Shown: one piece after another, positions 4,801 through 54,351 of the stretch | Position numbering within the stretch: position 1 is the stretch's first letter | How the letters are laid out: each line of letters starts with the position of its first letter | IMG/VR virus record: IMGVR_UViG_3300037297_000386 | Strand: one strand, 5' to 3' | Source: a virus | Taxonomy: Duplodnaviria > Caudoviricetes | Length of the DNA stretch: 64,000 bases | Notes under the pieces: model-generated | What the model was told of the DNA's origin: nothing | What the model saw: the letters and a program-made list of their open reading frames with translations, nothing else | Database searches by the model: none | Program-made: the position numbers and the translations under genes

Positions 4801-5059
4801 TAGCGCTACCGCCACTAATGCGAGAGACACTATAGTTAGATGCCAATTTGTTTAGATCTGTCCCAGATATAGAAAATATTGATGATAAATTTGATATAGT
4901 TCTAAGTTGTGAATATAAATTAGCGATTTGTTGGGATGGTGTGTCCACAAAAACATCACGCGATACCGTTCCAGGTTTTGTATCTAGCTCAGGTTGTACA
5001 AGTCGCAAATATTCTATAGCTGATATAACCAAATCGTTAAAAGATTTAAAAATAGCCAT
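1829..5059 (-). CDS. Baseplate J / T4 gp6-like wedge protein with large inserted domains (1076 aa)
   Basis: J-like N-terminus (ELDTKPGTV.RD; ASGTVVF; TAGTSGN; FSGGSNSESDDEFRSR) and C-terminus (LGTTVDASDVINKLYSVNGIDRV). Follows the gp25-like gene. Confidence 0.85.
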   Translation of the reverse strand: MAIFKSFNDLVISAIEYLRLVQPELDTKPGTVSRDVFVDTPSQQIANLYSQLRTISNLSSIFSISGTDLNKLASNYSVSRISGGSASGTVVFTTNNMDVDILISSGSIVTARNGVNFATQENVIMTATNANVYRATATRLRADLELAGITDEFAVEITVQSLTAGTSGNIGRFSITSHNIDSISNVTNLNSFSGGSNSESDDEFRSRILSIFAGSNTGTSLGYTNAVGIVPGILDSEIVVPGDPLLIRDGTQVSTNSDGNLVVSDPGSGGKVDIYILGSNLESQIDSFIFNDQSGKNDPTDPSNDYILGQKGQDTTLNAAQRRVTLISSNDLPYQPIDNIISVSGSSSGANFVEKYTDEQGREHGNYELVTDTGNFSGSPFGFDKLHWVSDYIELDNENVTKGVFNGIDSLNFSDVGEIRDITQDYLVTNENSITSTSNRSYVTLRHTPIRNVSRIVNLTTGERYIVEYQNPDGEEGGLNTTGKIMISGSTLPVGTDILQVDYTWVKNFDNVFDFDSLGNYNESRRVQDSVDWGFGNLVKNEPSTVVDDGYGNLAITVTHPIFKVLSVNSFDTSITNISNGTVTTNDTVTNVVDIRRISDNAELFNTDARGGTLSGTSAIVLPTDSIAEDGDTVKVRFNASDMFAPDGYNEGTFTGTTIILPENVTSFGTSVLVNYIANVLTLVPEDELSNLPFTKNNNKFLVAGEVSGEQPTSNLIDDDNNFTSNLRRAGSNIKVAVSSIPSEGIITISGTTVHKVTDALVVVTSGSGYEIDLQSAIKTDLNTTSISSNIQIMKLVSLERVLLDNSGQVDYIDNNYDIVNYYLKNNSYDLDVSLENSSISKTKVVLPQTSENVEARLNTGDIVRATFYYIYTNNYEQLYFSKDGTHITDKYFIDISRVSLASGFKDSSGSISGNITVSNFNQPVNNTVYNVSYDYTAPKENERITVTFNHNTLANDATNAIENVRPITADVLVKIAEPVIINVYSKIVLLSEYQTQSLTVVQDAIEAVTSFLTASSLGTTVDASDVINKLYSVNGIDRVRIINFSVGNSGNLLSVTAEKNQYLDAGTVTIEVEER

Positions 5060-5072
5060 TGCGTGTCTCCAA

Positions 5073-5501
5073 TTATAATTCTAATGAAAATATTTCTTCT
5101 ATTTTTGTTAATCGTCTGGAATATACCTCAACCCTTATCTTTATCTGTCGTGGATCGCTTGGATCTCGATATACATCAATATTTCCTATACTATTTATAA
5201 GTTCAGCCAAACTAACCTTTTGAGTTGTTTGTTGTTGCTGTTGTAATTTTTTTAATTTATCTAAACTCTGAAATATACTAGTGCGTATATCATTTAAAAT
5301 TATATTATCTGGCAAATTTTTACCTATTATATTGTCTGATAATACGCATCCATACCATGGATGAAATCTGTTTGACCCAAGTAATGTTATTAATATCTTT
5401 AAAATATCTTGTCTGAGCTTATCTGTGTCTTGAACAGTTTTTATACTACCATCGGATATAATTTTCAAATCACCATTAATAAGTGCCAAATCGAATGACA
5501 T
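5073..5501 (-). CDS. Baseplate wedge subunit, gp25/GPW-like
   Basis: 142 aa with DL...GDL, KLRQDILKILIT.LGS..FHPWYG and a terminal DPRQIKIRVEV strand. Directly upstream of the J-like gene. Confidence 0.85.
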   Translation of the reverse strand: MSFDLALINGDLKIISDGSIKTVQDTDKLRQDILKILITLLGSNRFHPWYGCVLSDNIIGKNLPDNIILNDIRTSIFQSLDKLKKLQQQQQTTQKVSLAELINSIGNIDVYRDPSDPRQIKIRVEVYSRRLTKIEEIFSLEL

Positions 5502-6824
5502 TTATTGTTCTCCTTCTGAATATCTATTACGTACTTTGTCTTCATGTTTAATAGTTTTTATGTATCCAGATAATTCATCAAATATTTTAGTAATTTCAGT
5601 TTGTAATTTATTAATTGACTCACTTAAGCCTTTAGCATTTGTTACAGCAGGAAGATTTTGTCCTTTTATATCTTTCAATCTGTCTTGCGATTTTTTATTC
5701 AACAAACCCGTCAAATATGTTGAGTCTAATTCAAAAAGTGCAATTATTGTAACTAATATATCAATTCCAGAGATTCCACTAAATGTTCCGAACATAAGAT
5801 CCATAGATCTAAATATTTCTTTAATTTCCAAGTGAACCTTATCTTGCTGAATATTAAGATTGCGTCTCTGTTTCTTGGTCCTATTTTGGGGAACTAACAT
5901 TTCAAGGAATAAATCAACCAAACCTTCCCCTTGTAAATTACGAGTATCAAGGTTTATATTGTCGTCGAACTGAAATAAAGATAAAACAGAATTTTGAAAA
6001 CTTTCTTTTATTGTTTGTTGATTTATTCTGTAATCTAATAGTCCAATTTGTTCATCAATACTTTGCATACTTAGGTTTTGCTGCGCAATATTAGGAACGT
6101 TAGGAATAACAACTTTTCCACTTAATCCTCTTAAATAATTTATCTTTTGAACAGTTCTTTCAAATGTATGAGAGACAGTATACAAGGTTTTGCGCAACCT
6201 TATCGATGCATTATTGCTTAGGTCTCCTAATGCAATATTTTGAAAAGCAGCACTTGTGTTGACCTGTTTAGAACTATCAATAGAATTTTCCCCTTTCAAT
6301 TTAAAATATAATATTGATTCTATGAATGGTTTTTTATATTTTATCATCTCATGCTTTAAATCTCTATTCGACATAAAAGCTCCGCCAACTCGTCTACTCT
6401 GTGGAAATATATTTATTCTACCATCCACAATCATAGGAAATAATACTCCACGATATCTATAATTGCTTTCATTTTTTGATAAACTAGATTTAATATTTTG
6501 TCTATTTAAATCTAAAAAGTTATTAATTTCTTCATTTGTCGCCTTTCTATCGAATAATCCGATACGTTCATCTAAATCAGCCTTATATGAAATAAAATTC
6601 AAATTATTGATATTTCCATTGTTAAATTCATCTGTTTTTCCATCAATCCAATCTCGTTCATTTTCTGGAATGACAGTCGGAAGGCCAAGAGCCCTATAAA
6701 AAGCATTAATTCTAGATTCATTTGGTTTAGTACCTGACTTACCAAATGACCTTAACGAATCTATATAACGAATAGCTCGAACAGAAAAGTTTTCAAAGTT
6801 GAAATCATTATTTTGATTAGACAT
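5502..6824 (-). CDS. Hypothetical baseplate-region protein (440 aa)
   Basis: Long ORF translationally coupled (TAATG) to the upstream gene, between the spike module and gp25. Confidence 0.65.
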   Translation of the reverse strand: MSNQNNDFNFENFSVRAIRYIDSLRSFGKSGTKPNESRINAFYRALGLPTVIPENERDWIDGKTDEFNNGNINNLNFISYKADLDERIGLFDRKATNEEINNFLDLNRQNIKSSLSKNESNYRYRGVLFPMIVDGRINIFPQSRRVGGAFMSNRDLKHEMIKYKKPFIESILYFKLKGENSIDSSKQVNTSAAFQNIALGDLSNNASIRLRKTLYTVSHTFERTVQKINYLRGLSGKVVIPNVPNIAQQNLSMQSIDEQIGLLDYRINQQTIKESFQNSVLSLFQFDDNINLDTRNLQGEGLVDLFLEMLVPQNRTKKQRRNLNIQQDKVHLEIKEIFRSMDLMFGTFSGISGIDILVTIIALFELDSTYLTGLLNKKSQDRLKDIKGQNLPAVTNAKGLSESINKLQTEITKIFDELSGYIKTIKHEDKVRNRYSEGEQ

Positions 6825-24572: not shown

Positions 24573-25496
24573 TTAATAGCTTATTTTTGATCCTTTTTTA
24601 AAATTATCTGTTGCCCATAATGGCTGTAAATTAGTATAATGACATGCCTCAAGAAATTGTTTTCTATCCGTCAAATCAAAACTCGCTAACGGACGAATAT
24701 GATCTATATGCCAACCGCCAAATCCATAATTTTCCCAAGTCATTCCATATTGAAATTTGGTTTCTAGATATTGTTTTAGATCTGCTATCGAACAACCCAA
24801 ATCTCGGACTGCTGATCCAGATTTTTGATTATTTCGTATAGCATCGCCTAATCTTGTCCGTAATCTGCATGCCAATTTATATTGTATATCGGTTCTTTCT
24901 CTATTATTACGATATTTACAAGCCCGAGATAAAATTTTAAGCTTATTTTTCTTATAATATTTTTTATTTCGTTCTATTATTTTTTCTTTATTATTGACAC
25001 GATATTGTCTGTCTCGTTCTATTATTTTTTCTTTATTATTACAGCGATATTCACTTTTTTGGGCATTTATTTTATTTCTATTTTTGGATCTATATATTTT
25101 TTGATTGATATTTATTTTTTCTTTATTTCTAATATAATATGCTCTTCTACTATTCTTAGAATTCTCATTTTTAGATATCTTATTATTTATTATATTAGTA
25201 CAAGTTTTACATTCAGACCTGTATTTCTTAGTATCTTCTCTAAAATAAAACTCAAATATAGGTTTTATTTCATCGCATTTTCGACACTGTTTACTTCCAG
25301 ACTCTACTTCTTCTCTATATTTCTGTAATTTTTGTTTCCTTTTAGCTCTTCTTTCATCTATATTTATACAATATTCTTTATGACGTATATTATCACATTT
25401 TTTACAACAATTACGATATTTACTTGTGTCCTTCCGAAAAGAGAAATCTAATAATGTTTTTATTTTACCACATTTTATACATTTCTTACTATCCAT
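24573..25496 (-). CDS. HNH-family endonuclease with N-terminal CxxC modules
   Basis: Two KxCxKC...F..RKD...CKxC modules, a basic coiled linker and C-terminal WHIDHIRPL...HYTNLQPLWA.DN.KK. Paralog of 53467-54351. Confidence 0.85.
   Translation of the reverse strand: MDSKKCIKCGKIKTLLDFSFRKDTSKYRNCCKKCDNIRHKEYCINIDERRAKRKQKLQKYREEVESGSKQCRKCDEIKPIFEFYFREDTKKYRSECKTCTNIINNKISKNENSKNSRRAYYIRNKEKININQKIYRSKNRNKINAQKSEYRCNNKEKIIERDRQYRVNNKEKIIERNKKYYKKNKLKILSRACKYRNNRERTDIQYKLACRLRTRLGDAIRNNQKSGSAVRDLGCSIADLKQYLETKFQYGMTWENYGFGGWHIDHIRPLASFDLTDRKQFLEACHYTNLQPLWATDNFKKGSKISY
24969..25040. repeat. 45-bp-period tandem duplication inside the HNH gene
   Basis: TCGTTCTATTATTTTTTCTTTATTATT is identical at 24969-24995 and 25014-25040, encoding NNKEKIIER twice. 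Confidence 0.85.
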
Positions 25497-26352: not shown

Positions 26353-26952
26353 TTATGTTATTTCTAATTCAGTTTGGCCATCTGGAAGTTTTTCTGGAAC
26401 TTCAAAATTAATATTTTGAGGAAGCAATTTCTTTCCATTAATTTCTCCTTCAAATAAAGCAACATATCTACCGGAAGGTAATTGGCTCATCCAATGCCCA
26501 GCCCTATTTGTTTTTGTTTGTTTTATCAATTTATCTTTTTCATCGTATATTTTTACTGATGCATTGGCTAATGGAACCGCACTTTCTCCTTTTGCAATTT
26601 TTAATTTTCCTTTTACCATAATACTTTTTGATTTTTTTAAAACAGGCCTATTTGTTTTATTTTTTATGCGATTATCTTTTAATTTTGCCGCGTCAACTGG
26701 TTCAAAATTAAAATTTTGAAATCCAGATTTTTGTTTTATTTTGTCTATCTTTTTATTTACATCAGATATACCAGGTGCTGTGGCTCGGGCCCACCCATCT
26801 AAAGGCGTATTGGTTGCTTTCTCAACCAACTCGGCCAAATTTGTACTATTTATAATAGTTTTTATATTATTATCCATTACATCTAATCTTTTTTCTAAAT
26901 TCACCAAATGAGATAATATTTCTTCTAACATATCAATTCCAGATCTTGTCAT
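26353..26952 (-). CDS. Protein with N-terminal coiled coil and C-terminal prealbumin-like beta-sandwich
   Basis: PLANASVKIYD...QTKTNRAGHW...LPSGRY resembles carboxypeptidase-regulatory/CnaB-type domains. Confidence 0.55.
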   Translation of the reverse strand: MTRSGIDMLEEILSHLVNLEKRLDVMDNNIKTIINSTNLAELVEKATNTPLDGWARATAPGISDVNKKIDKIKQKSGFQNFNFEPVDAAKLKDNRIKNKTNRPVLKKSKSIMVKGKLKIAKGESAVPLANASVKIYDEKDKLIKQTKTNRAGHWMSQLPSGRYVALFEGEINGKKLLPQNINFEVPEKLPDGQTELEIT

Positions 26953-26970
26953 TTCTTACTCTCCATAATA

Positions 26971-29900
26971 TTAATATCTAAATCTTATAGTAACCCCATA
27001 AACTCTAATATTATCCATACTTGTTGGATTCACGTAAAAATGTGTAATCCGAACATAATATCTAAAAGCGTTATGGTTAATAACCTCTGTTAAACCGCTA
27101 ATTTCTCCGGCGCCACCCGTTATATGGGCATATCCGAAATAACCACTAACATTCATTTCATTAGAACCAACTGTAGTTCCTATTACTTCGGATTCAAATT
27201 CGGATTCAAGTAATTTTCTCTTTATTATTTCTGCATTAAAATATTCACTGCCAGATTGTGGAGCGTTTCTTCCTTGTACTTGTATTCCAGTCAATGTTGA
27301 GCCATTCGGTATATTAGATATAGGAAAATATAAATATCGTGTATATATGCCAGAATTATCTGATATAGTCCAATAGTCTCTCGTACCATCCATTCTCCAC
27401 TGTGCTTCATATCCATCATATCCTGGGACCGCTGACGAAGCTGGTAAGCCAACAGCATCAGGTAAACCACGGTTTATTCCTATAGTATTATTGTTTGTAT
27501 AAAGTGATAATTGAGAAATGGTTGGCCCAATTTGCAAGCTACTAGCACTATACGTAGACGTATCTGGTAAACTATTTCCAATAAACATACATCCTGATAC
27601 TTCAACATTCGGCATTCTAATTGGGGCACCAGTTAAATTAGTCGTAATTATAGAATTATTTGTGATAGTGACATTTGTTACTTTGTTGGCCGCATATATA
27701 CCATGTGTCCCTTGACCTTCTAAAATATTTCCTGTTATTGTTGTACTGTCCATATTTTGTTCCATATTAATAAACACAGTATCAGCGGTTGCTTTACTAT
27801 CATTCTTTAATCTATTGCCAGAAACAATATGATAATTACCATTCAAATTAATAAGAACTGACATGGTTGTTCCTTCAATAGTATTACCAATTATTTTCAT
27901 TCCTTCGTTAGCCGTGCTTTTATTAGATATACCAACTGAATTCTCATTTACCATATCCATAATAGAATTATTCACAATATCAATGTAACTGGATTCAGCA
28001 TAAATACCATAATTGAAAGAATAATCAGTTGATGGGTCGGGCGTACTAAAATGATTGGTAGAAATTTTACTGCGTTCGCCTTTCCAATAAATTCCATAAT
28101 TTCCTGGGCCAATTAATTTATTGTCTGATATATTTGCCCTATGTGCATTACCATATATATATCTAGCATTAGTATTTCCGATTCTATCTAATGTATTACC
28201 AATGATTGACGCCAATGTAGAAGTATTCTTAACGTAAATACCATAACGAGCCTCACTGTTGATCAACATGTTATTTTCTATGTTAATAGAATCAACACTA
28301 TCGTCTATCCAAACAAGAGCTGTATTGTCATAATTTGAATCATAAACTATCGAGTTCGATATAGTATTACCATGCAACATCGCATGTTCGACATCTTCTA
28401 TGTAAATGCCATATACAAAGCTGTCTCGCAATTTAATGTTATTTATATAATTATTAAATAATGAAAGATATGATATTTTATTACCAGTTGCTGATTCACT
28501 TATAACCCTAATTCCATTAGATATTCGATTTTCTTCCCCACTATCTAGTTCCCCAGTTATAGTATTATTATTAATTCTTAATGTCTCTATACTTTCGCCT
28601 ATATCTACATAAATACCACGAATATCTGTATTATTTACATCAAGTGCCTTGATAGTGTTCCTGGTTATTTGTATATTATTGGATGATCGAACAGATGTTC
28701 CAACTTTTATCCCGTTAGAAACTCCAATTCCAGAAACATTAGTAATATTATTATTATCAATTATCATATTATTACATCCAGTATCACATATTATACCAGA
28801 ATAAATATTATCAATTTTGTTATTAATGATACTTACATTGTCTGATGCGTTTATTGTGATACCTATATCATAACTATTGGTCGATATTGTATCGCCAAAT
28901 CTAAACAGACATCTTTCGATATTAACATTTGAACCATCAATCAATATAAGTGATCCCTGCAAACCAACAGTAGCGCTTAGAATTTCGATATTTTCGAGAT
29001 TATTATTTCCCTCTAGAGTAATAAAATTATCACCATGTTCTAACTCATTTATTATTTGACTTTTCCCGTTTCCACCAAATGGTACATTTCCAATAATAGA
29101 AACACCATTTGGTACGACTAATGGATTTTTAGGATAGACTGGATTTATTATTCGTATTATTAACTTTTCTTTATTTGGATAATGGTTCGCATACAACAAT
29201 GCGCCTTCAAGACTTCTAAAGTTTCCAATTACATTATTTGTTTCATCAACTATGATATCTATTTTATCATCTAGATTGTTGGTAAATTTTCTAATATCTA
29301 CCACATTTTCAATATTACCATTATTTACGGTTATTTGATACAATGGCAATATTTTACCAAATGTTGCATCGGCATTATATCCATCAGTCAGTATTTCACC
29401 AAGTTCATCACTTAATACTTGTATAGATCCAAAATCATTTATTCCAACTATTCGTATAGAATTGTTTAATATTATTCCTTCTGAATCTTGCACATTTACT
29501 ATAACTTTTTGAGTCTCTATTGCTAAACGAACCCCATTGACATAGGCAATTCCACCACGCAACGGTAAAGCTGCCATATCAGTAACAGAATCATAATATG
29601 GAATATCAAGAAGATCGAAACCACGTACAATACCATTAGAGCGCAACTCAGATGTTGGCCTTTGACTGAATATCTCGATAAAGTCATCTCTTATTTCATT
29701 CGAACTAATATTACCAAATAAACGATTATCTATTATATTTGTAATCGAATGGGTACCATCAAAATGTACAGTAGCTAATAAAAAGGCCTCATCTGGTGGA
29801 ATAGACTCACTTATAGTTGCAATTTCTAATCCCCCTGGTATATTTCCTGGAATGATTTTAAAAAGCATATAATCTAGACCGTTTGGATGATATAATTTAA

Positions 29901-35166: not shown

Positions 35167-35198
35167 CCGATCCTTTTTTGTTAATTTTTACTAATAAC
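35167..35198 (-). repeat. 32-bp copy of the putative IS607-like right end, 29/32 identical to 36240-36271
   Basis: Minus strand GTTATTAGTAAAAATTAACAAAAAAGGATCGG versus GTTGTTGGTGAAAATTAACAAAAAAGGATCGG. Confidence 0.8.
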
Positions 35199-35234: not shown

Positions 35235-36233
35235 CTATTGGTGCAAATAAAATACCAAACCAGTATTAAATAAGTATTGATTAAAAGCTTTAGTAAAAGG
35301 CGTTCCAACAGATAATATTGCTCCTATATTTAAGTCTAGGTCAAATACTTTTGGATTAAAAGAAATACCAACATGCTGTGCTAAATTATCAACATCATTA
35401 AAACTTAATGATGTGTAAGTATGTACGCCTAGCCATTTCCATTCAAAAAATTGTAATCCGAGTCCGAAATTGGTATTACAGTTTGGTAATATATTAATTG
35501 CCCCTATTGCGGTTACACGTAGTTTAAATAGGTCCTTCCAACTAGATTCTGGATTTATAGTTGGACTGTTGTAATATTGAAATTCAGAATCTACTATTTT
35601 AGCTTTAGCATTAGGAATGGGTTTGTATTCACCTTCTTTATTCTTAAACATTTCCCTCAATATTAATCGACGTGTTTGTAAAAAACCTTCTTCTTGTTGC
35701 CAAATTTCACCATATATTTTAAATATTTGTTCACTTCTAAAGATTTCATTATTTTTTTGAAATATATTTGGATCCTCTAATCGGAATCGCTTAAGCGTGT
35801 CTTCCCAGTTATAACTTATAATGCAATTTCCCAAATCATCTAAACTATCACATTGTACAATATTTACCTCGGTTGTCCCACCATCTATTTTTTGTCTTAA
35901 TCTTGCTATAGTTATATCACGACTTTTGATCTGAAGGTCGTGCTTTTTCTTAAATTCTTCAAAATTTTTATCTACTTCTTGTTTATCCCTTTTAAGCTGT
36001 TCAATAAGATCGTGTTGTGTTACCAGTTTAGATCGCGATATTCCAAGTCCTATATTTAATTCTTGCAATTCTCTTTCATTATCAGTTAGCTTTCCTTGTA
36101 ATTGTCTATTATAGGTTTGTAATCTTTCATTTTCTTTCATTTGACAGCTTCTCATAAAAAATCCGCCGGAAACTAACAAACTTATTAAAACCCAAAGAAA
36201 ATATTTATTTCCCAATATTATTAAAGCTTTCAT
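35235..36233 (-). CDS. Membrane-anchored coiled-coil protein with C-terminal amphipathic beta-strands (spanin-like candidate)
   Basis: N-terminal TM helix (FLWVLISLLVSGGFF) followed by RSC, then a ~100-aa coiled coil and alternating beta-strands ending NTGLVFYLHQ. Confidence 0.55.
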   Translation of the reverse strand: MKALIILGNKYFLWVLISLLVSGGFFMRSCQMKENERLQTYNRQLQGKLTDNERELQELNIGLGISRSKLVTQHDLIEQLKRDKQEVDKNFEEFKKKHDLQIKSRDITIARLRQKIDGGTTEVNIVQCDSLDDLGNCIISYNWEDTLKRFRLEDPNIFQKNNEIFRSEQIFKIYGEIWQQEEGFLQTRRLILREMFKNKEGEYKPIPNAKAKIVDSEFQYYNSPTINPESSWKDLFKLRVTAIGAINILPNCNTNFGLGLQFFEWKWLGVHTYTSLSFNDVDNLAQHVGISFNPKVFDLDLNIGAILSVGTPFTKAFNQYLFNTGLVFYLHQ

Positions 36234-36239
36234 AATCTA

Positions 36240-36346
36240 CCGATCCTTTTTTGTTAATTTTCACCAACAACGCTACTGTTTAAGCAAGGTGAATCTCTCA
36301 ATGCCCTAAGTAAAATTCCTAGAGCTCCGTTTATATCTCGATCCAT
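36240..36346 (-). pseudogene. tnpB: 3'-terminal relic of a tnpB gene (IS607-associated type) plus putative transposon right end
   Basis: Mini-ORF 36346-36254 reads MDRDINGALGILLRALRDSPCLNSSVVGEN, matching the TnpB RuvC-III motif DRDxNGAxxI. It is followed by ...AAAAAAGGATCGG, and its last 32 bp recur at 35167-35198. Confidence 0.7.
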
Positions 36347-36366
36347 TTTCTTACCTCTCATATATA

Positions 36367-39300
36367 TTAAGTCGCTGCAGATGTCATGTTTGAACCAAAT
36401 GTTGTTCCTGTATTTGCGCTGGAACTATTACCCCATCCTATAGCATGGTTCGTGAAATTAATACCACTATAAGAACTAAACCAATTCAGTGCTATCATTG
36501 GATCGGATGTACCATTTAATGCCGGACAATCGTAATCACCTGCTGCAGATAATGATAAAGTTAAAGCTCCAGTCATAGAATTGGCTATTATCATGCAGCT
36601 ATCCATTTCTGTACCTGGACCAGTATAAATAGTAATATACCCCGGTCCAGAGTTACCAGTGATAGCAATTCTAGTATGTTCATTAGCAACCCCACTAGAT
36701 CCGAGAGCTAGCCCGGTTTGAAACACATTACCAGAAAAAGTGCTATGTATAAAATTGTCCGCGGTACCATCTCCTGTTTTTGCAAAATGTATAAGACCTT
36801 TACAATTATTTCCTTGAAATGCAACACGAGTAATACATGCCGTATCAGTTCCAGTATCTGTGACTGTTAATGAACTATTGAAAGAGTTACCATTGCAAGC
36901 AACATCGATCCATTTGCCTGATGTAAAAGTGCTATTGAAAATATTGTTTCCAATACTTGATTCAGTAATCGTATTACTACCAGCTGAAGCGGTACTATTA
37001 AATGTGTTTCCAGAACAAGAAACATCGGTCCAAGAGCTTGAATTAAAAGCCGCATTAAACACATTGGATGTTACACTTACAACATTCAAGTCATCCACGC
37101 TCAGTGTTGATGCTATCTGATTTCCAGTAACTATACATCGAACAAGATCACCATCAATTGTCACAGTATCGTCAAATTGATTACAAGAAATTGTACAATC
37201 CTGCAATGAAGTTGAAGTAGCATCAAAATTTACAACACTAGAAAATATATTATCTGTAATAACACAATCATTCAATACCCCAGTAAAATCTATATTATCT
37301 ACATAATTGCTTGAAAAGGTTGTACTAACGAGTGATGATAAAAAGTCTAATGCATCAGTTGATCCGCTAAAATTATTACCAGTTATGTTGGAGTTATAAA
37401 CAGCGCCCGTTATATCAACAGTATCTTCGAATTTATTATTATTTATAACTGAATAATAAATTTCCTCTAAAGAAGTATTATTACCGTTACCATATATCAT
37501 ATTATCAGATATTAATGAATCATATATACGATCAGCAATTTGAATGGCCCCATAGATATTATTCGAAGATATGGTCGATCTAACTATGGAATTATCACTT
37601 GAATATGTAAATGATAAAGTCTGATATAATTGATTGTCAGAAAACACACTATCTGTAAATGTCCCAGATAAAGTTATTGATATATACCCACTAATTCCAG
37701 ACATTATATTATTTTCTATAATACTTTTACTTACATTCCCTGAAATTGTTACATTATCTGAGAATACATTTCCGTTTAATACACAATTTGTTAAAGAATT
37801 TAACCCAACTGTAGAATCAACAATATTATTTCCCACAGTACTATTTGATAAAGGAGCAGCAGAAGCTGATATTATATTAAATTTATTACCAACAATAGAC
37901 AGCCTTTCTTTAGCACTTGCAGACAATGTGAATGTTCCATTAACATAGTTAGAAATTATATCAGCATAATCACAATCACCATTCATATTAAGATTGTTGC
38001 ATCGATTATTACTAATTACACAACCAGAAGATGCTGTTCCTCCCACAGCACCAGAAAATACCAAATCGGACGAATCATCTACAATATTATTATTAATAAC
38101 ACAAGAATCTAATGAATTTGAAAATGTTACAGTAGATGCTGAATGATTAGAGCTAAATGATGAATCTGATAATGTACCACTTATAGTGGATACTCCAACA
38201 ATATTATTATTATCAATTAGTGCATCGGTGATCGCTCCATCAATTGTAAATGTAGAATTAATAGTATTATTAATTATATTAGAACTAGACACATATCCAT
38301 CTTCAATACTATCATCGATCTCAAATGTTCCATTTACGATATTAGAGACACAAGTAGAATTTTGTGATAATCCACTTAATGTCAGATTTCCATCCCCATC
38401 CGATCCAATCATATTACTAGACATAACGGTACCACTTAATGTGCCTATAGTAACATTGTCTTTCATGACATTATTACTTATGGAACATCCGGCTAATGAT
38501 CCACTTATAGATATATCACTACCAAAAGAATTGTCAGAAATAACAGAGTTTTGATACGTTACTATGGTTCTACCACTTGGTCCAAGATTAAAATAACTAC
38601 CGATTCTATTTGAATTAAATATAGTATTATTAAATAAATTTCCACTCGTAGTTGTATTAAGATCTGTACCAATTGATAAATAACCGTCAAATTGATTATT
38701 AGATATAACTGAATCCAATACGTATGTAGAATAACTGGCCGAATCAACTCCAAGACATCCTAATCCGCTAGCAAATATATTATTACAAAAAGTTGAATCT
38801 AATAACAAGTAATGCCCTGACGAATCTTCATTCACATCCATAGTAACAGCACCAATTATAGTATTACCGTCAAAATGTGATTTTTCAAAAATTTTATCTC
38901 CGGATTGAATAACAAATGCGTTAGAGCTAGAATTAGTCAAAGTATTATAACCAAATGTAGAGTTTAAAAATATTGCGTTTGTTCCGGAATTGGTAAAACT
39001 GACCGCTCCATCAATTTCAGTATTTGTTATAGACGAATTATTTAACAATGTTCCGGCCAATGAAGGCATTGTGAACCCTGCATCTAGAACAGAGTTATCA
39101 ATCGAAGAAGATATCATAGATGTAACTTCAACAGAACTAGAAACAAATTTACAATCACTAATTTCTGTGCCTGTAATAGCACCGAATACTATTTTTTGTG
39201 AGGGTTCAGAAAATAGCAAATTACCAGAAAATGTTACATCACTACAATCACCAACTGAAATATCTGCAGTTGTTGAAGTTGATCTAAATATATTATTAGA

Positions 39301-42300
39301 ACAAGCGACATTAGTTAAATCACCTATAATTAGAGCTGCGTATGGTGCGAGATCATACCCATCAGAATCAACCACATTACCTATAATAGATGTATAACTG
39401 GTCGTACTTAGATTAAAAACTCTAGCGTTATTGTTATTTAATGTAGAGTGATTTCCTAAAGTTCCAGATATTATTAGGTCACCACTACAAGAGTTTCCAT
39501 TAATACATGACGAAGATACTGAACCAGATATACTAATTCCCCCGATTCCAGTATTTGTAAAATCACGTAGTATTGTATTATTCGATATACTTGAATTATT
39601 TATTGAACCAGTTATTTGTATAACATGTCCAGTTATAGATGCATTTCCAATTGTATTAGAGTCTATCTTAGTAGAAGTAACAGATCCGGCACCAAATGTG
39701 CCAGCAACCATGAGTCCAGTAATTGTTGACTTTGTTATATCACCCACAGATGTAACATTTCCTCTCACAGTGTTATTTCCAAACACAGAGTTAGACACGG
39801 ACGTTGACACATTCAAATTATTTTCTATTTCATTGTTTGAAAATACAGTATTACTCCACGTTGTTGACGATATACCAGATGATCCTAGGATACTATTGGA
39901 ATCGATTGTACTATTGCTAATTGCCACAATAGTAAGGTCACCTTCTAGGCGATTGTTGCATATTTTTGATTCATCACAAGAATCATGTAATTCGATTTTA
40001 CCAGAAGATGTGTTTTCAGAAATTATAGAGTTATCAATTGTGCCAGCAAAATCAAATCCTGTTGACCCAGCCATATTTGATGTAATACTTGTTTCATCCA
40101 AATCACCATTTAAATCTATCGCTCCTAATACGGCATTATTGGATATCATGGCGTTTGTAATATTACCATTTAATATTAAGTCAGACGAAACATGATTACC
40201 AGATATTTGTATTTTATTTCCAGTAGCAGCAGCAATTGCAACATTTCCACCAGTTACCCAGTTGTTTTTAATAGATAGATCATTAAAATTACTATCTGAA
40301 TCTAAAGTACCGCCTATGTTAATAGATCCAGCAACCAGTTTGTTTCCAGATACAGATAAATCTTCGAATGTATAATCATTAGCATCAGTCGTAGATTCCA
40401 TTACAATGATTGACCCAGTTGTATCAAACACATTATTTTCTATAGTACATCCTTGTAAAGTAAATCCACTACTATTTGCTATCATATCATGTAAGGTAAT
40501 ATTACTACTGCCCATCATTACATTATCTTTTATTACAATTATATCTGAACTGCTACCATCAGCCGAATCTCCTGCATATATATCGTAAAACAAATCGATA
40601 TGATTAACTCTATTATTCGATATAGAAATATTGTGCAATTTGTGAGAATACCAATATATTCCTTTCGATCCGACGAATGTGTTTCCAGTTAATTCAATAC
40701 CTTTAGTGTCCGTATCTAAGTATACACGTTCATTAAAAACCATGTCGCCATGCATTATATTGTTAGAGAAAATGCAAGCACTTAAATAGATACCAACATA
40801 GGCGTCATCCCCAAAATTAATTGAGTCAACTATGGTAGTATCAGCATCACCAATCATATTATTTGTAACTTTTAAGTCAGAATATGTAATATTGCCTCCC
40901 GCAGAATTGGCAGATGTGGCAAAATTAATTGACGAAGTTACAGAGTTATTATCAATGATAAGATTTTTGATATTATGTTGCCCAAATCCATGCAATGATC
41001 CAGATATATCTAAATCGTCATGGAATTTGTTATCAGATATATTAACATTATTAATTTCCCAATCTGATGTTGTATCATCAGCTTTAAAAAGTGCTTTACC
41101 GAAACAAATATTACCAACGAAATTAAAATCACTAACTGAATTATATATACCAAAGGAATTAATAATATTATTGTTGAATTGAGAATCCACAATATACCCA
41201 TCTAGGTGGATATCATTAAACACATTGTCTTTAATTATTGATCCAGATAAACCATTAATATATATATTCCTAAATTCTGAATTATTACAAATACGCACAT
41301 TTTCTAAAATTGTGTCTATATCTAATCCTATATCAGCTGTTAGTGCTATATTATTTTCTGTAATATGGATCTCTCGTATATTTTCTAATATACCTCCATC
41401 TGAAATACCGCTTTCAAAATATATTGCATATCCATCAACAGCCGATTCTGAAATTTTAAAATTGTTAGAAGTTATATTGATATTATCTATAGACACACTT
41501 GGAGTAACTGAAAGCCCGTCGATGATATAATTTCCTATATAAACTGGTCGATCGAATGATGGTGAATCGAAGATATTACTATATATATCGATATTTTTAT
41601 ATGTTGTGTTAATATGCTTGGGAGCAAATCCAATACCATAAGCATCATGTGTGGCCCACAATTCATTGTTTTTAATTTTTATATTCTGAATTGTTTGAGA
41701 GGCAGAAGTTGTTGTTATTTCTATAGCGGCCCGTTTTTCAGTTGATCCATTAGTTTTTATAGTGAGCCCACTAATTGACGCATCGCTTCCTTGCACTGAA
41801 AATGCGGGCAAACTATTCGGACGAGTTATTTCAGCTCGCTTACTTAAACCAATCACTTTGACATTCGAGGGTATATTAACAGTATCAGTATATACATAAT
41901 CTCCCTCTTTAAGATATACTGTCCCTCCATACGGTGATAATGAATCAACCGCCATCTGCATAACGGTACTTGTTTGACCATAATATGTTCCAAAACTATT
42001 AATACCATCACCAACTGTTACTATATTAACATCATCATTATCTATTAAAGTCGGACCTGTATATTGATAAAAAGTTGCGAACATAGTTAAGCGTCCTTCA
42101 TCTTCTGGACGCTCATATCCATCTATATCTCCGTATACTCCGAATGGATTCATTATACTATTAATGCCATTTAGCGGAGCACCAGTAAATCTTATTATAC
42201 CATTAGCATAATCTACAGTCCACCTTGCATTATTACCAATGCCATATTCAGCTGTTGGATCAGCGGTAATCGGAATAGAACCATACCCATCATAGGCATC

Positions 42301-42792
42301 CAAACTAGATCCGGTTGGAGATGACAAATCTGTCACAGAATGGGCTGGAAATAGCGCTAACTCAAAACCACGAAAATTAGGATCGGCATGAGCGGCATTT
42401 GTTTTACCTATTGATAAATCAGGTGGAACTATATGTTTTACACGTACAAATTCTATATCCTCTGGATTATCTGATGCAGGCGTAGAATGGACTGCAACAA
42501 AAGTCTGGATAGATGATAGCCCAGACATGCCAGATGTAGCTAAAGAATGTAAACGAATTTTTTGACGTCTGGATGCTACTGCGCCGTTTGGCCAATCACC
42601 ATATTCCGGAGATGTAAACAAAGTATCGGATGTAGGGGTTTCACTAAATATATCATTCCGTAGAATTATTTCCGAATTACCAAATGGCTCTTCAACATAT
42701 GATTTATCCGACCCTAAAGTATTAGCCTTTCGTTGCTCACACTTATCGGCTCCGGCAATTTTTTCTTGGTCTAAGTTTGTAAAAGTTGCCAT
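36367..42792 (-). CDS. Very long parallel beta-helix tailspike/fibre (2141 aa)
   Basis: Pectate-lyase-like cap (MQMAVDSLSPYGGTVYLKEGDY...VNIPSNVKVIG) followed by ~1800 aa of N/S/I/D-rich beta-helix repeats. Confidence 0.8.
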   Translation of the reverse strand: MATFTNLDQEKIAGADKCEQRKANTLGSDKSYVEEPFGNSEIILRNDIFSETPTSDTLFTSPEYGDWPNGAVASRRQKIRLHSLATSGMSGLSSIQTFVAVHSTPASDNPEDIEFVRVKHIVPPDLSIGKTNAAHADPNFRGFELALFPAHSVTDLSSPTGSSLDAYDGYGSIPITADPTAEYGIGNNARWTVDYANGIIRFTGAPLNGINSIMNPFGVYGDIDGYERPEDEGRLTMFATFYQYTGPTLIDNDDVNIVTVGDGINSFGTYYGQTSTVMQMAVDSLSPYGGTVYLKEGDYVYTDTVNIPSNVKVIGLSKRAEITRPNSLPAFSVQGSDASISGLTIKTNGSTEKRAAIEITTTSASQTIQNIKIKNNELWATHDAYGIGFAPKHINTTYKNIDIYSNIFDSPSFDRPVYIGNYIIDGLSVTPSVSIDNINITSNNFKISESAVDGYAIYFESGISDGGILENIREIHITENNIALTADIGLDIDTILENVRICNNSEFRNIYINGLSGSIIKDNVFNDIHLDGYIVDSQFNNNIINSFGIYNSVSDFNFVGNICFGKALFKADDTTSDWEINNVNISDNKFHDDLDISGSLHGFGQHNIKNLIIDNNSVTSSINFATSANSAGGNITYSDLKVTNNMIGDADTTIVDSINFGDDAYVGIYLSACIFSNNIMHGDMVFNERVYLDTDTKGIELTGNTFVGSKGIYWYSHKLHNISISNNRVNHIDLFYDIYAGDSADGSSSDIIVIKDNVMMGSSNITLHDMIANSSGFTLQGCTIENNVFDTTGSIIVMESTTDANDYTFEDLSVSGNKLVAGSINIGGTLDSDSNFNDLSIKNNWVTGGNVAIAAATGNKIQISGNHVSSDLILNGNITNAMISNNAVLGAIDLNGDLDETSITSNMAGSTGFDFAGTIDNSIISENTSSGKIELHDSCDESKICNNRLEGDLTIVAISNSTIDSNSILGSSGISSTTWSNTVFSNNEIENNLNVSTSVSNSVFGNNTVRGNVTSVGDITKSTITGLMVAGTFGAGSVTSTKIDSNTIGNASITGHVIQITGSINNSSISNNTILRDFTNTGIGGISISGSVSSSCINGNSCSGDLIISGTLGNHSTLNNNNARVFNLSTTSYTSIIGNVVDSDGYDLAPYAALIIGDLTNVACSNNIFRSTSTTADISVGDCSDVTFSGNLLFSEPSQKIVFGAITGTEISDCKFVSSSVEVTSMISSSIDNSVLDAGFTMPSLAGTLLNNSSITNTEIDGAVSFTNSGTNAIFLNSTFGYNTLTNSSSNAFVIQSGDKIFEKSHFDGNTIIGAVTMDVNEDSSGHYLLLDSTFCNNIFASGLGCLGVDSASYSTYVLDSVISNNQFDGYLSIGTDLNTTTSGNLFNNTIFNSNRIGSYFNLGPSGRTIVTYQNSVISDNSFGSDISISGSLAGCSISNNVMKDNVTIGTLSGTVMSSNMIGSDGDGNLTLSGLSQNSTCVSNIVNGTFEIDDSIEDGYVSSSNIINNTINSTFTIDGAITDALIDNNNIVGVSTISGTLSDSSFSSNHSASTVTFSNSLDSCVINNNIVDDSSDLVFSGAVGGTASSGCVISNNRCNNLNMNGDCDYADIISNYVNGTFTLSASAKERLSIVGNKFNIISASAAPLSNSTVGNNIVDSTVGLNSLTNCVLNGNVFSDNVTISGNVSKSIIENNIMSGISGYISITLSGTFTDSVFSDNQLYQTLSFTYSSDNSIVRSTISSNNIYGAIQIADRIYDSLISDNMIYGNGNNTSLEEIYYSVINNNKFEDTVDITGAVYNSNITGNNFSGSTDALDFLSSLVSTTFSSNYVDNIDFTGVLNDCVITDNIFSSVVNFDATSTSLQDCTISCNQFDDTVTIDGDLVRCIVTGNQIASTLSVDDLNVVSVTSNVFNAAFNSSSWTDVSCSGNTFNSTASAGSNTITESSIGNNIFNSTFTSGKWIDVACNGNSFNSSLTVTDTGTDTACITRVAFQGNNCKGLIHFAKTGDGTADNFIHSTFSGNVFQTGLALGSSGVANEHTRIAITGNSGPGYITIYTGPGTEMDSCMIIANSMTGALTLSLSAAGDYDCPALNGTSDPMIALNWFSSYSGINFTNHAIGWGNSSSANTGTTFGSNMTSAAT

Positions 42793-45541: not shown

Positions 45542-46921
45542 TTATATTAACGTTTCTATTGGAAATTGGTAGACTACGTCCGTTTTGTCAAGTCTTTTAA
45601 TTCTAAATGATTGTTTTCCAGTTTTTCCAAAAAATAATTTATTTCTGACTACATCTAAACATTCATAACGAAACTCTTCCGTACCATCTTCATTAAACCT
45701 AATTATAATAGATCTATCTTTAATTGTAGGTACATTAATGGTCCAACAATTTGGAATTTCTACTGATTGCCTGGCTCCTTGAGCAGCCATTAATTCCAAA
45801 TCATCTGTATAAGGAGGTATTCTAGCTAAAATAAAACCTTGCGTATTTTGGCTGTATTCTGAGATTGGTCTCGGATTAACATATCTATCATAACCACCAT
45901 CAAACCCAACATTAAAACAGTATGGGCATCTTGTGCGAGGATGTTCTCTTCTCAATCCTTGACATCTACAGCGCTTTCCAGTCCATTTTCGTTTTAATAA
46001 AATTACTGTTTCACCAGTAACCTGTAACATAGCATCCAATCTTGCTAGATTACGATCTTGAAAAAACAGACCTCTTCCGTTATCAAACTCTCCACCTACA
46101 TAGCTTTTAACACATTCTCCACTAAAAGTAGCTTGTAAACTTGGTCTATGATAACTATTATAATCATAACTTGGGAAATCTAATGTATTTTGATCAGATA
46201 CGGATAAGTCTGTTGTCAACAAATCCTGTGATTTTGATCTATATCCATCTTCATCTACATTATATTCACCAATAGCCTCTGTATTACGGGGTGTTCCGTA
46301 TGATTGGTGCCAGGCAGCAGTTTCTTGAAAAATTACAGTATTTTGCTCTTCAACGCCATGCCATAATTTTACTTCGGTTCCTGCAAGATGTGTATCTATA
46401 TATGTAATATAAGCACCCCGTTGTATGTCTTCAACTATAAATGCCGTATCTGTTTTTGTGCTATATTGTAAAATTTCAGTATCAATTAATAGGAACCCTT
46501 TGTTTGGATAACCTTGTGTACTACCAACTTCTACTGTTGCTCCGTATGCATCAATATCTTCCTGTAATATGACAGTATTAGGATATTGATATACATTATT
46601 ACTAATTTGATCTAGATCTTCTATGTCGAACTCTTCTATATCAAACTCAGTCGCTCTAACGGCAAAATAGTATAAATTGCCTGGGTCAACGTTGATCACC
46701 GCCTGTTTATCTCTCGTTATAGCCTGAGGCCAATTATCAAAAACTCCAAAACGAGTGTCAGAATAATATATATTATAATGTATTATGTTGGAAACGTTAT
46801 TTGGAGTTGCTTGGCCCCATGTGAGCTTTAGACCCATCCCGTTGCCAACATCCTCTACAACTCTAAGGCCAACATAAAAATCCCATGTAGGTTTTGGTCT
46901 GCATCCAACCGAACTTGTCAC
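45542..46921 (-). CDS. Head-closure/neck protein with N-terminal FN3-like domain and CxC...CxxC motif
   Basis: LTWGQATP...HYNIYY...YYFAVRA (FN3-like). C-terminal GETVILLKRKWTGKRCRC...CPYCF..GF.GGY and P.IKDR..II...EFRY fit head-closure proteins. Confidence 0.6.
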   Translation of the reverse strand: MTSSVGCRPKPTWDFYVGLRVVEDVGNGMGLKLTWGQATPNNVSNIIHYNIYYSDTRFGVFDNWPQAITRDKQAVINVDPGNLYYFAVRATEFDIEEFDIEDLDQISNNVYQYPNTVILQEDIDAYGATVEVGSTQGYPNKGFLLIDTEILQYSTKTDTAFIVEDIQRGAYITYIDTHLAGTEVKLWHGVEEQNTVIFQETAAWHQSYGTPRNTEAIGEYNVDEDGYRSKSQDLLTTDLSVSDQNTLDFPSYDYNSYHRPSLQATFSGECVKSYVGGEFDNGRGLFFQDRNLARLDAMLQVTGETVILLKRKWTGKRCRCQGLRREHPRTRCPYCFNVGFDGGYDRYVNPRPISEYSQNTQGFILARIPPYTDDLELMAAQGARQSVEIPNCWTINVPTIKDRSIIIRFNEDGTEEFRYECLDVVRNKLFFGKTGKQSFRIKRLDKTDVVYQFPIETLI

Positions 46922-46933
46922 AATAGGTCCTCG

Positions 46934-47455
46934 TTACTCTTCCATCAGCTCTTTTTTCTTCTTATCACGTTCCGTACCCACCAAATCATGATGGTCCAAC
47001 AGTTTTTCTACATAATCATCTGCTTCCTTTTCAGATTCTTCCCTCTTTTTAAAATTTATTTGAGTTTTAAATGCTTCTTCTTCTGTATCTAGGTCTAAAT
47101 AATCCTTATTTTTATTGTGTTTGCAATTTTGTCCAGTTGATTGTTGTAAATAGTGAACCAACTCATGAATTAAATAATGTGTAGGATCTTTAACATCGCT
47201 ATCATCATCTAACATTTTTTCATTTAAAAATATTTCTCTATTTTTTGTTTTAGCTGATACATCTAAATCGCAGAATTGTACAGAAACATCATCTATGTCA
47301 TCTATTGGGACATCATATTCTTTAAATTTTTTTATAATAGCAGGGTCTTGTTTGGCTTGTTCTTTCATTTCAATTATAAGTTTTTCAATATCTGGGTCCG
47401 ACCTGCTACTTATCTTTTTCAGTGTCAGATGCCTCATAGACAGCTTTTTCATCAT
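46934..47455 (-). CDS. Small zincin-type metallopeptidase (HExxH)
   Basis: THYLIHELVHYLQ plus downstream TEEEAF as a candidate third zinc ligand. Confidence 0.65.
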   Translation of the reverse strand: MMKKLSMRHLTLKKISSRSDPDIEKLIIEMKEQAKQDPAIIKKFKEYDVPIDDIDDVSVQFCDLDVSAKTKNREIFLNEKMLDDDSDVKDPTHYLIHELVHYLQQSTGQNCKHNKNKDYLDLDTEEEAFKTQINFKKREESEKEADDYVEKLLDHHDLVGTERDKKKKELMEE

Positions 47456-53224: not shown

Positions 53225-53470
53225 TTACTCCTTACTTTCTAATACTTCACCTAAAACTTTCACATTGACGGCTTGTGGCCCCTTATGGTTTTCTCCTAAT
53301 TCGAAAGATACTGGTTGCCCTGGTTTTAATGTTTTAAAGCCAGGCATATCAATATTTGTCCAATGTACAAACAAATCTTTTTCACCATTATCTCTTACTA
53401 CATATCCATAACCTCTACGGTGATCAAACCAAGCTACAAGCCCAGTTAAATCATTGCTTAATTCTGTCAT
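53225..53470 (-). CDS. cspA: Cold-shock domain protein
   Basis: G.V.WFD..RGYGY (RNP1), DLFVHWTNI (RNP2), GFKTLKPGQ.V.FE, KGPQA.NV. Confidence 0.9.
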   Translation of the reverse strand: MTELSNDLTGLVAWFDHRRGYGYVVRDNGEKDLFVHWTNIDMPGFKTLKPGQPVSFELGENHKGPQAVNVKVLGEVLESKE

Positions 53471-54351
53471 TTCTTATCTCCTTCTCTCGGGCATTTTGCC
53501 CACTTTTTTAAGTTATCTTCGGCCCACAATGGCTGAAGGTTTGTGTAATTACAGACTTTCTTAACATGCTCTCTATTAGTTAAGTCAAAACTAGATAGTG
53601 GAATAATATGATCTATATGCCACCTTCCATAATTATCCCAGGTCATGCCAATCTCGAATTTCTTTTCAAGATATAATTTTAATTCTTTTATAGAACATCC
53701 AAGATCTGCAACGGCTGAACCAGCACGATATCCTTTTTTAACTGCTTGATAGAACCTAGTTCTAAGTTTTTTCCTGATTTGTGCTGTTATACTGTTTTTT
53801 ATATACCGTTGCTCACGTGCTATTATTTCGTCTCTATTTTCTTTATACCGTTGTCTTTTTTCAGATAATATGCGTTCCTTATTTCTTTCATACCAATTCT
53901 TTTTTCTTTTAGCACATGCTTCTTTGTTTTTCTCGACATACTCTTTTTGTTTTATGGTCAATCTTGCCTTATTTTTCTCTCGATATTTTTTACTACCATT
54001 TTTTATAGATTCTTTGTTGTTTTCCCTATATTTTTTACAGCGGTCCTTATTCTTAGTGTGCCATTCAGCACTTTCTTTGCGTCTGCAATACTTACAACGG
54101 CTCTTTAACCCATCTTTAGTATTTTTACATCTACCAAAATTATCAACATCCAAAATTTTCATACATCTGCGACATTGTTTTTTATCATCTGAGTCTTGAT
54201 ATTCTATTTTGTTTGGGCCTTCTTTTTTCCATTTTTTAATATAATCGCGATGGCAATTTTTACATTGATTTCTAAGACCACTCGGACTGTCTTTTCGTCG
54301 ATAAAATCTAGAAAAATCTTTTAATTCTCCGCATTTACTACATTTCTTCAT
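53467..54351 (-). CDS. HNH-family endonuclease, paralog of 24573-25496
   Basis: KKCSKC and KQCRRC modules, WHIDHIIPL...NYTNLQPLWAEDNLKK. Confidence 0.85.
   Translation of the reverse strand: MKKCSKCGELKDFSRFYRRKDSPSGLRNQCKNCHRDYIKKWKKEGPNKIEYQDSDDKKQCRRCMKILDVDNFGRCKNTKDGLKSRCKYCRRKESAEWHTKNKDRCKKYRENNKESIKNGSKKYREKNKARLTIKQKEYVEKNKEACAKRKKNWYERNKERILSEKRQRYKENRDEIIAREQRYIKNSITAQIRKKLRTRFYQAVKKGYRAGSAVADLGCSIKELKLYLEKKFEIGMTWDNYGRWHIDHIIPLSSFDLTNREHVKKVCNYTNLQPLWAEDNLKKWAKCPREGDKK

Follow-up and report, generated by a model that had tools for sequence, protein, structure and literature searches.

Among described systems, the IS607 elements ISXfa1 and IS607 of H. pylori come closest to the locus studied here. 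As in these elements, the relatives of our element have a serine-recombinase TnpA adjoining TnpB, end in CGG on the right and follow RGG on the left, were inserted at GG without target duplication and encode an RNA that shares sequence with the 3' end of tnpB and extends to the element boundary. Unlike them, the locus itself has neither TnpA nor a left end and retains only the last 30 tnpB codons. According to the published IS607 rule, the target motif is RGG/GGG and CGG marks the guide side (Yoon et al. 2023, bioRxiv 10.1101/2023.08.09.552727). The same study described 'pro-Fanzor' IS607 TnpBs, which were proposed as ancestors of the eukaryotic Fanzor2; their signatures are DPG and a shifted RuvC-II glutamate, and the clade was reported almost exclusively from Cyanobacteriota (Yoon et al. 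2023, bioRxiv 10.1101/2023.08.09.552727). Another IS607 TnpB, that of ISFba1, uses a RAGATH-18-derived reRNA (Ren et al. 2024, PMC11061315). ISFba1 shares with our element the IS607 context and a guide RNA at the right end, but the RNA fold differs. When the region was compared with Rfam, including RAGATH-18, no match was obtained at E up to 10. For related systems, scaffolds of 120-144 nt have been reported; with 115 nt the remnant described below is at or below this range.

The locus in the phage genome

The analysed stretch of 64,000 nt, called the window in the following, is the reverse complement of positions 87692-151691 in a 162,416-bp IMG/VR record. This record covers ~40% of the genome of a huge wetland phage and has a G+C content of 32.8%. 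All genes of the window are located on the minus strand. The following features define the locus:

36367-42792, minus strand: upstream gene, 2,141 aa, virion protein of the fibre/tailspike type
36366..36234, minus strand: gap of 133 nt between the stop codon of the 2,141-aa gene and the ATG of the 332-aa gene
36359..36354, minus strand: GAGAGG, 7 nt 5' of the relic ATG at 36346
36240..36354, minus strand: right-end remnant (115 nt) of an IS607-type (pro-Fanzor-like) TnpB element, delimited by the covariance model, the sample copies and the intact element L077
36254..36346, minus strand: last 30 tnpB codons, from the RuvC-III motif DRDxNGA to the natural stop region
36346..36254, minus strand: relic ORF of 30 codons from ATG to TAA, reading MDRDINGALGILLRALRDSPCLNSSVVGEN
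35235-36233, minus strand: downstream gene, 332 aa, with an N-terminal hydrophobic segment and coiled-coil-like sequence

The upstream gene matched no Pfam family. The ATG of the relic ORF follows its stop codon by 20 nt, and at the other side the gap closes with ...AAAAAAGGATCGG (…GGATCGG) at 36240, then TAGATT and the ATG of the 332-aa gene, the leader of which is now the IS607 relic. The earlier note had described 36240-36346 as a tnpB tail located 20 nt past the upstream stop and ending in GGATCGG, which is correct. In the JGI annotation a 30-aa gene was called for the relic ORF, on this contig only. A consensus scan of the two gaps on either side of the 332-aa gene revealed neither promoter nor terminator on the gene strand.

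Some features elsewhere in the window were observed in passing. A 173-aa ORF among the virion genes (46934-47455, minus strand) gave weak, below-threshold Pfam matches to Peptidase_M91, an eCIS core domain and SprT-like, and possibly is a candidate small zinc metallopeptidase. Furthermore, a 136-nt direct repeat with 71% identity (24585-24720 and 53494-53629) lies within two ORFs of ~300 aa (24573-25496 and 53467-54351), which are probably paralogous genes.

The relic ORF encodes the end of a TnpB

We regard it as secure that positions 36354..36240 on the minus strand derive from the 3' end of an IS607-type TnpB element. With the 55-residue stop-to-stop frame as query, 5.8 billion sequences were searched for longer proteins only. 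Four matches were found, three of them with TnpB domains. The best, P0002 (99 aa, PF07282), had 69% identity at E 3.4e-6, followed by P0003 (101 aa, E 9.4e-6); P0005 (543 aa) carries both PF12323 and PF07282, and P0004 is a 329-aa broken variant with no Pfam domains on record. In the alignment the window peptide keeps 17/17 invariant columns (D-R-D-x-N-G-A-L-G-I-L-L-R-A-L-x-D-x-P-x-L). Conversely, a tblastn search of the whole record with P0005 yielded the relic as the sole match (E 8.7e-6), and the TnpB of the intact L077 element aligned with it over 36 residues at 69% identity (E 9e-10). Altogether, the relic is 69-83% identical to TnpBs across 24-36 residues, including DRDxNGA, and only the last 33 residues exist. 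The claim of a TnpB RuvC-III tail is therefore borne out by the protein search (E 3.4e-6), tblastn (E 9e-10) and all 17 invariant columns.

With 30-35 codons remaining, the complete RuvC-I, -II, -III triad of an active enzyme is absent and Pfam PF07282 does not fire. Searches of the peptide and the region against Pfam, PDB sequences and Rfam gave no match; for Pfam and PDB this is due to the shortness of the peptide (35 residues), and for Rfam to the RNA not being a curated family. Neither tnpB nor tnpA was found elsewhere in the 162-kb record (~40% of the genome). A PF07282 match of 14 bits in a 459-aa ORF at 45542-46921 was rejected as chance, as Pfam shows no TnpB domains there. We also considered a C-terminal frameshift extension of the upstream gene, and rejected it; the frame is open for just 21 more codons, and TnpB homology explains the ORF.

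Family of the element

Relatives were drawn from species genomes (Candidatus Paraprochloron, Prochloron, Moorena and a proteobacterial MAG), from metagenomes (50 loci) and from viral contigs (L009, L010). The closest full-length proteins, with 76% identity to P0002, are encoded on two contigs whose gene content resembles that of jumbo phages (DnaJ, RecA, primase, sigma factors and an SbcCD-like pair). Intact IS607 elements in jumbo-phage-like or viral contigs are:

L077, 3925-5589
L078, about 3930-5591
L009, 1656-3329

In L009 and L077 a TnpA of 197-199 aa, consisting of a MerR-type HTH and a resolvase domain, is encoded immediately 5' of tnpB. Of L078, only the start of a similar TnpA is seen, and in L007 the TnpA C-terminus is followed by a 5'-deleted tnpB. 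These MerR-HTH/resolvase TnpAs in the relatives identify the element as IS607-type, in agreement with the earlier note; in the window and the 162-kb record, a serine-recombinase TnpA is absent.

By eye, the TnpBs of the relatives (P0005 and L077) have DPG in RuvC-I, EAYTSKT in RuvC-II and DRDxNGA. The EAYTSKT glutamate lies six residues before the zinc-finger site in relatives keeping that site. These motifs are shared with the pro-Fanzor clade, and the closest cellular hosts are likewise cyanobacteria (Paraprochloron, Prochloron, Moorena). On the basis of the motifs and the hosts of the nearest relatives, the family thus appears to carry the pro-Fanzor signature. Unlike that clade, the copies nearest to the window reside in jumbo-phage-like contigs and lack the zinc-ribbon cysteines: in L077, L078 and L009 all four are lost, with EAYTSKTNNFTG... 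replacing ...KTCxxCG. In the relic, the RuvC-I and RuvC-II region is deleted, leaving RuvC-III as the part that can be compared.

The right end is an element boundary

The following positions are relevant at the right end:

36240..36246, minus strand: right-end terminus GGATCGG, comprising the 3' strand of the long-range helix and the terminal GG
36220..36239, minus strand: would-be guide flank, TAGATT and ATG... of the 332-aa gene, positioned according to the IS607 reRNA rule (Yoon et al. 2023)

In every relative, similarity stops at ...A-rich-G(T/G/A)ATCGG, 14-41 nt past the stop codon, and the flanks differ beyond this point, so that the exact right end is common to >15 independent elements. 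Particularly clear are L012, L013 and L014, in which one and the same element occupies three sites. On the left, the flanking RGG precedes GGTTGACAC..., and on the right the element closes with ...GTATCGG, with unrelated DNA directly after ATCGG; both ends agree with the published IS607 RGG/GGG + CGG rule. Moreover, the window copy and the intact L077 element agree in all of their last 22 nt. The shared right end, the divergence of the flanks and the identity with L077 show that GGATCGG at 36240 is a true element boundary, as had been proposed. The relic joins the flank as IS607 right ends do, with ...CGG meeting the flanking DNA at GG and no target duplication. At the opposite side, the 12 nt between the upstream stop and the relic bear no likeness to a left end. 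Of the ~107 nt that the earlier note had assigned to the remnant, the right end at 36240 holds but the start does not, as homology begins at 36354, 8 nt upstream of 36346.

Every element has direct repeats of a TTGTTAGC-like 8-mer immediately inward of its right end, in two or three copies at a spacing of ~10-12 nt, with the following examples:

L004, 4633-4662: TTGTTAGC-like repeats
L012, 3307-3347: TTGTTAGC-like repeats
L015, L022 and L023: TTGTTAGC-like repeats also present

Motifs similar to these repeats occur at the left end of L009. We presume that the subterminal repeats are probably TnpA binding sites; they overlap the terminal RNA hairpin.

Two observations concern the flanks. The Prochloron copy L014 and the window (36234-36239) have the first six flank bases, TAGATT, in common, probably by chance. 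The leader of the ORF at 26353-26952, located at 26953-26975 on the minus strand (GGAGAGTAAGAA-ATG), closely resembles the relic junction (GAGAGGTAAGAAA-ATG); with their A-rich sequence, the K-K codons of tnpB thus mimic native spacer DNA.

A conserved RNA fold spans the remnant

We used RNAalifold on two MAFFT alignments of relatives. The elements of the fold in the window are:

36303..36325, minus strand: hairpin 1, a 10-bp stem in codons A-L-G-I-L-L-R-A, supported by covariation
36291..36295, minus strand: 5' strand GAUUC (D-S codons) of the long-range helix, pairing with GGAUC at 36246..36242
36251..36270, minus strand: terminal hairpin UUGUUGGU-GAAA-AUUAACAA, overlapping the subterminal TTGTTAGC-like repeats

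Across the family, hairpin 1 lies within codons A-(L/R)-G-I-(L/F)-L-(R/K)-A, where the choices of Arg and Leu codons covary across both sides; in the relatives up to 6/10 pairs are changed on both sides. In the window, nine of the ten pairs form and one is an A.A mismatch. The long-range helix of 5 bp joins GAUAC (D-T codons) with GUAUC at the right end, with compensatory changes in L007 (GAUUC/GAAUC) and L023 (GAUAA/UUAUC). In the phage subfamily, which includes the intact L077 and L078 and the window, the helix is GAUUC/GGAUC. An alternative outer helix between GAUAU (D-I codons) and AGUAUC appeared in several single folds, but it is uncompensated where the right end changes, and GAUAC/GUAUC was preferred. 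Single-sequence folds additionally contain the terminal hairpin in all copies, with differing sequences, a small GGN/NCC stem around GAUAC that would form a pseudoknot, and in every intact copy a third hairpin, the sequences of which are unrelated.

In the MAFFT alignment of 13 relatives, 96.2% of the cells were paired, compared with 82.2% in shuffles and 41-50% with slid partners. Nine pairs were changed on both sides, a number reached by one of 500 shuffles, and on the other four measures no shuffle out of 500 reached the observed value. For 32 model-aligned copies, 97.2% were paired and 10 pairs changed on both sides, in an alignment that leans towards the model. Over both alignments, pairing amounted to 96-97% vs 82-84% (shuffles) vs 35-51% (slid). 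Hence, at the level of the family there is a covariation-supported secondary structure as expected of an omegaRNA/reRNA, and the relic overlaps the 3' end of tnpB and terminates at the element boundary as such RNAs do.

A covariance model (R1) was built from the 13 relatives with the window left out. On held-out intact phage copies it scored 107-110 bits. In the 162-kb record its sole match was the window, end to end at 36349..36240, with 94.4 bits and E 3.9e-17. Since the retained piece coincides with the conserved, covarying RNA domain, the guide would be the start of the next gene, as the note had stated.

Compared with the end of the intact L077 element, the relic is 87% identical but lacks the 14 nt that form hairpin 3, and by this loss the ORF continues into the terminal hairpin. 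Hairpin 3 (~14-25 nt) is present in every intact copy and absent from the relic. The same short tail is found in P0002 and P0126, from which it follows that the loss of hairpin 3 predates the window copy. Of the small GGN/NCC stem, one of three pairs forms in the relic, and all element sequence 5' of 36354 is gone, TnpA and the left end included. Hairpin 1, the terminal hairpin and the long-range helix have survived in the relic, and no change is seen in this helix, in the final 35 nt or in any of the 17 invariant residues.

Insertion site and translation signals

The right end of the relic is located 6 nt 5' of the ATG of the 332-aa gene. In phage-borne copies the distance from the right end to a co-oriented ATG is 4-10 nt (6 and 9 in the window, 10 in L007, 8 in L009, 10 in L010, 4 in L077 and 4 in L078); intact phage copies lie 4-8 nt 5' of a co-oriented start codon. 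In part this pattern is to be expected, as these phages leave only tens of bases between genes. The left flanks of the intact phage copies are Shine-Dalgarno-like (GAAAGG, TAGGAGG, CAAAGG). In the phage, ribosome-binding sites follow the rule GGAG/GAGG at -13 to -7, which the spacing between GAGAGG and the relic ATG fits. Judged from this arrangement, GAGAGG at 36359..36354 presumably served the 332-aa gene as Shine-Dalgarno sequence in the ancestor, with its GG as the insertion target. The rebuilt uninterrupted site, GAGAGG-TAGATT-ATG, has the normal ribosome-binding geometry of the phage. At present, the 332-aa gene and the 1,023-aa gene have only AAGGA, at 10 and 13 nt upstream, respectively.

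Further copies and transcripts

A shorter copy of the same right end is located in the adjacent gap:

35167..35198, minus strand: second right-end stub, 32 nt; its last 22 nt are identical to 36261..36240 and it ends 9 nt 5' of the ATG of the 1,023-aa gene

In 100 shuffles no such match arose. The stub marks another insertion, in the neighbouring intergenic gap, that has decayed further, and it cannot fold.

We also checked the sequencing run that is the probable source of the contig. Two further contigs have a depth of 19.6, compared with 19.4-21.5 for the phage; similarity is confined to 36240-36354 in one (15.8 kb) and to 36240-36333 in the other (2.3 kb), and gives way to unrelated sequence thereafter. 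For two contigs, the upstream continuation reads ...LGSKEFIEVGS, the sequence of P0002, with differences mostly at third codon positions. The source sample therefore contains at least two further copies at phage depth, at least one of them longer than the relic, and the equal depth suggests that they belong to the same phage. P0126, a cluster mate of P0002, resides on a 311,797-bp JGI contig. Other truncated copies are P0002/P0126 (99-100 aa), L007 and L010, the latter being another short right-end relic in an unrelated, G+C-rich viral contig. In the RNA data, which consisted of assembled contigs of a single library, one contig (X3) extends from the upstream gene into the relic and stops inside the repeat, which could be DNA carry-over. 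Run X2 gave no cover over the relic.

IMG/VR contained no further close DNA copy of the relic. Neither the 332-aa protein nor the fibre C-terminus had relatives in IMG/VR or in the L009 and L010 records, and there was no exact match to the start of the 332-aa gene. In these searches for IMG/VR relatives and gene-start matches, no sister genome with an empty site was found. Likewise, the 162-kb record contained no second targets of the would-be guides.

Interpretation

The reading that we favour, and hold to be fairly likely, is that the stretch is a decaying, stranded relic which now serves as the leader of the downstream gene. The missing hairpin 3, the broken stem, the A.A mismatch, the absence of tnpA and tnpB, the 32-nt stub and the truncated copies together argue for ongoing decay. 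An IS607-type transposon with a serine-recombinase TnpA and a pro-Fanzor-like TnpB would have targeted the GG within the Shine-Dalgarno sequence of the 332-aa gene. The element would thereby have been placed between ribosome-binding site and start codon, as with intact relatives in other huge phages. A later deletion may have removed everything from the left end through 11 nt before the DRD codons. The last 115 nt left by it would comprise the final 30 tnpB codons, the exact right end and the larger part of the guide-RNA fold. Translation of the 30-codon leftover ORF would now start from the old Shine-Dalgarno sequence, and that of the 332-aa gene probably depends on re-initiation, on the AAGGA in the right end or on both. 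Any further deletion would harm the start region of the next gene; this, and not guide work, is probably why the remnant persists, and we infer that the relic lacks guide function.

Some observations count against this reading. There is an almost exact overlap between the remnant and the conserved RNA domain, at least two copies in the sample have the same depth, ~60% of the genome is unseen and could encode a trans-acting TnpB, and the RNA-library contig reaches into the relic, although this last point is weak. The main alternative assumes a functional orphan omegaRNA: transcribed together with the late virion genes, the relic would be bound and trimmed by a TnpB supplied in trans, either from an intact copy elsewhere in the phage, from a co-infecting relative or from the host. 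Its targets would be genomes with the uninterrupted site, RGG followed by TAGATTATGAAAGC..., and the activity would drive homing of the relic or exclusion of sister phages; a TnpB programmed by this relic would recognize AGG + TAGATTATGAAAGCTT. The match of the retained piece to the covarying domain up to the exact right end, the intact subfamily-specific GAUUC/GGAUC helix and the further sample copies at the same depth fit an orphan guide. The same is true for the intact cognate elements with identical last 22 nt in jumbo-phage-like contigs and for the reported scaffold lengths of 120-144 nt. In addition, the left junction has a TAM-like AGG but no target and would thus not be self-targeted. 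However, hairpin 3 is lost, no tnpB is present in 162 kb (~40% of the genome), the only other copy of known structure (P0002/P0126) is itself truncated, the neighbouring 32-nt stub is unable to fold and no empty-site sister genome was found. On balance we consider an orphan guide unlikely. The earlier note had left the choice between an orphan omegaRNA and a scar. With no tnpB in 162 kb, one conserved hairpin missing and a second copy reduced to a 32-nt stub, the scar is the better-supported reading.

An extended form of the trans-acting model appears less likely still. The relic and its sister copies would then be a set of late-transcribed guide RNAs without own TnpB, loaded by one TnpB from the unseen 60% of the genome and cutting sister phages with uninterrupted gene starts, i.e. 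RGG and the first codons of virion genes.

As another possibility, the stretch may be kept for control of translation, with termination of the 30-codon ORF 20 nt before the next ATG coupling or tuning expression of the 332-aa gene. GAGAGG 7 nt before the ATG at 36346 obeys the ribosome-binding rule of the phage, the 332-aa and 1,023-aa genes have nothing but AAGGA at 10 and 13 nt, and the 30-codon ORF is uninterrupted. This geometry is, however, a consequence of the deletion and not evidence of selection, and the ORF was called on this contig only; such a role seems unlikely. That the 30-aa peptide itself acts is less likely, as it is a nuclease fragment without a fold of its own. Finally, a chance likeness or a native phage regulatory repeat unrelated to transposons, to which the null results for Pfam, PDB and Rfam and the occurrence of the 22-nt repeat before two start codons might point, can be dismissed in view of the covariance-model match (E 3.9e-17), the tblastn match (E 9e-10) and the same end sequence closing intact TnpA+TnpB elements in unrelated genomes.

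Significance

The decaying relic provides a clean, well-delimited example of the life and death of an RNA-guided IS607 element in huge phages. The pattern is one of landing on the GG of a Shine-Dalgarno sequence right before a start codon, decaying from the left and leaving a right-end stump with most of the guide-RNA fold. TnpBs with the pro-Fanzor signature, reported almost only from cyanobacteria, occur here as intact TnpA+TnpB elements in jumbo-phage-like contigs, and in the pro-Fanzor-like RNA part of the RuvC-III coding sequence folds into a strongly covarying hairpin. If the guide-set model were true, a gene drive or exclusion weapon would have been made from pro-Fanzor-type IS607 parts, and the right end would also have evolved an AAGGA that replaces the Shine-Dalgarno sequence split by the element. 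If it is true that the stump guides a TnpB in trans, it would constitute a natural phage-against-phage RNA-guided system.
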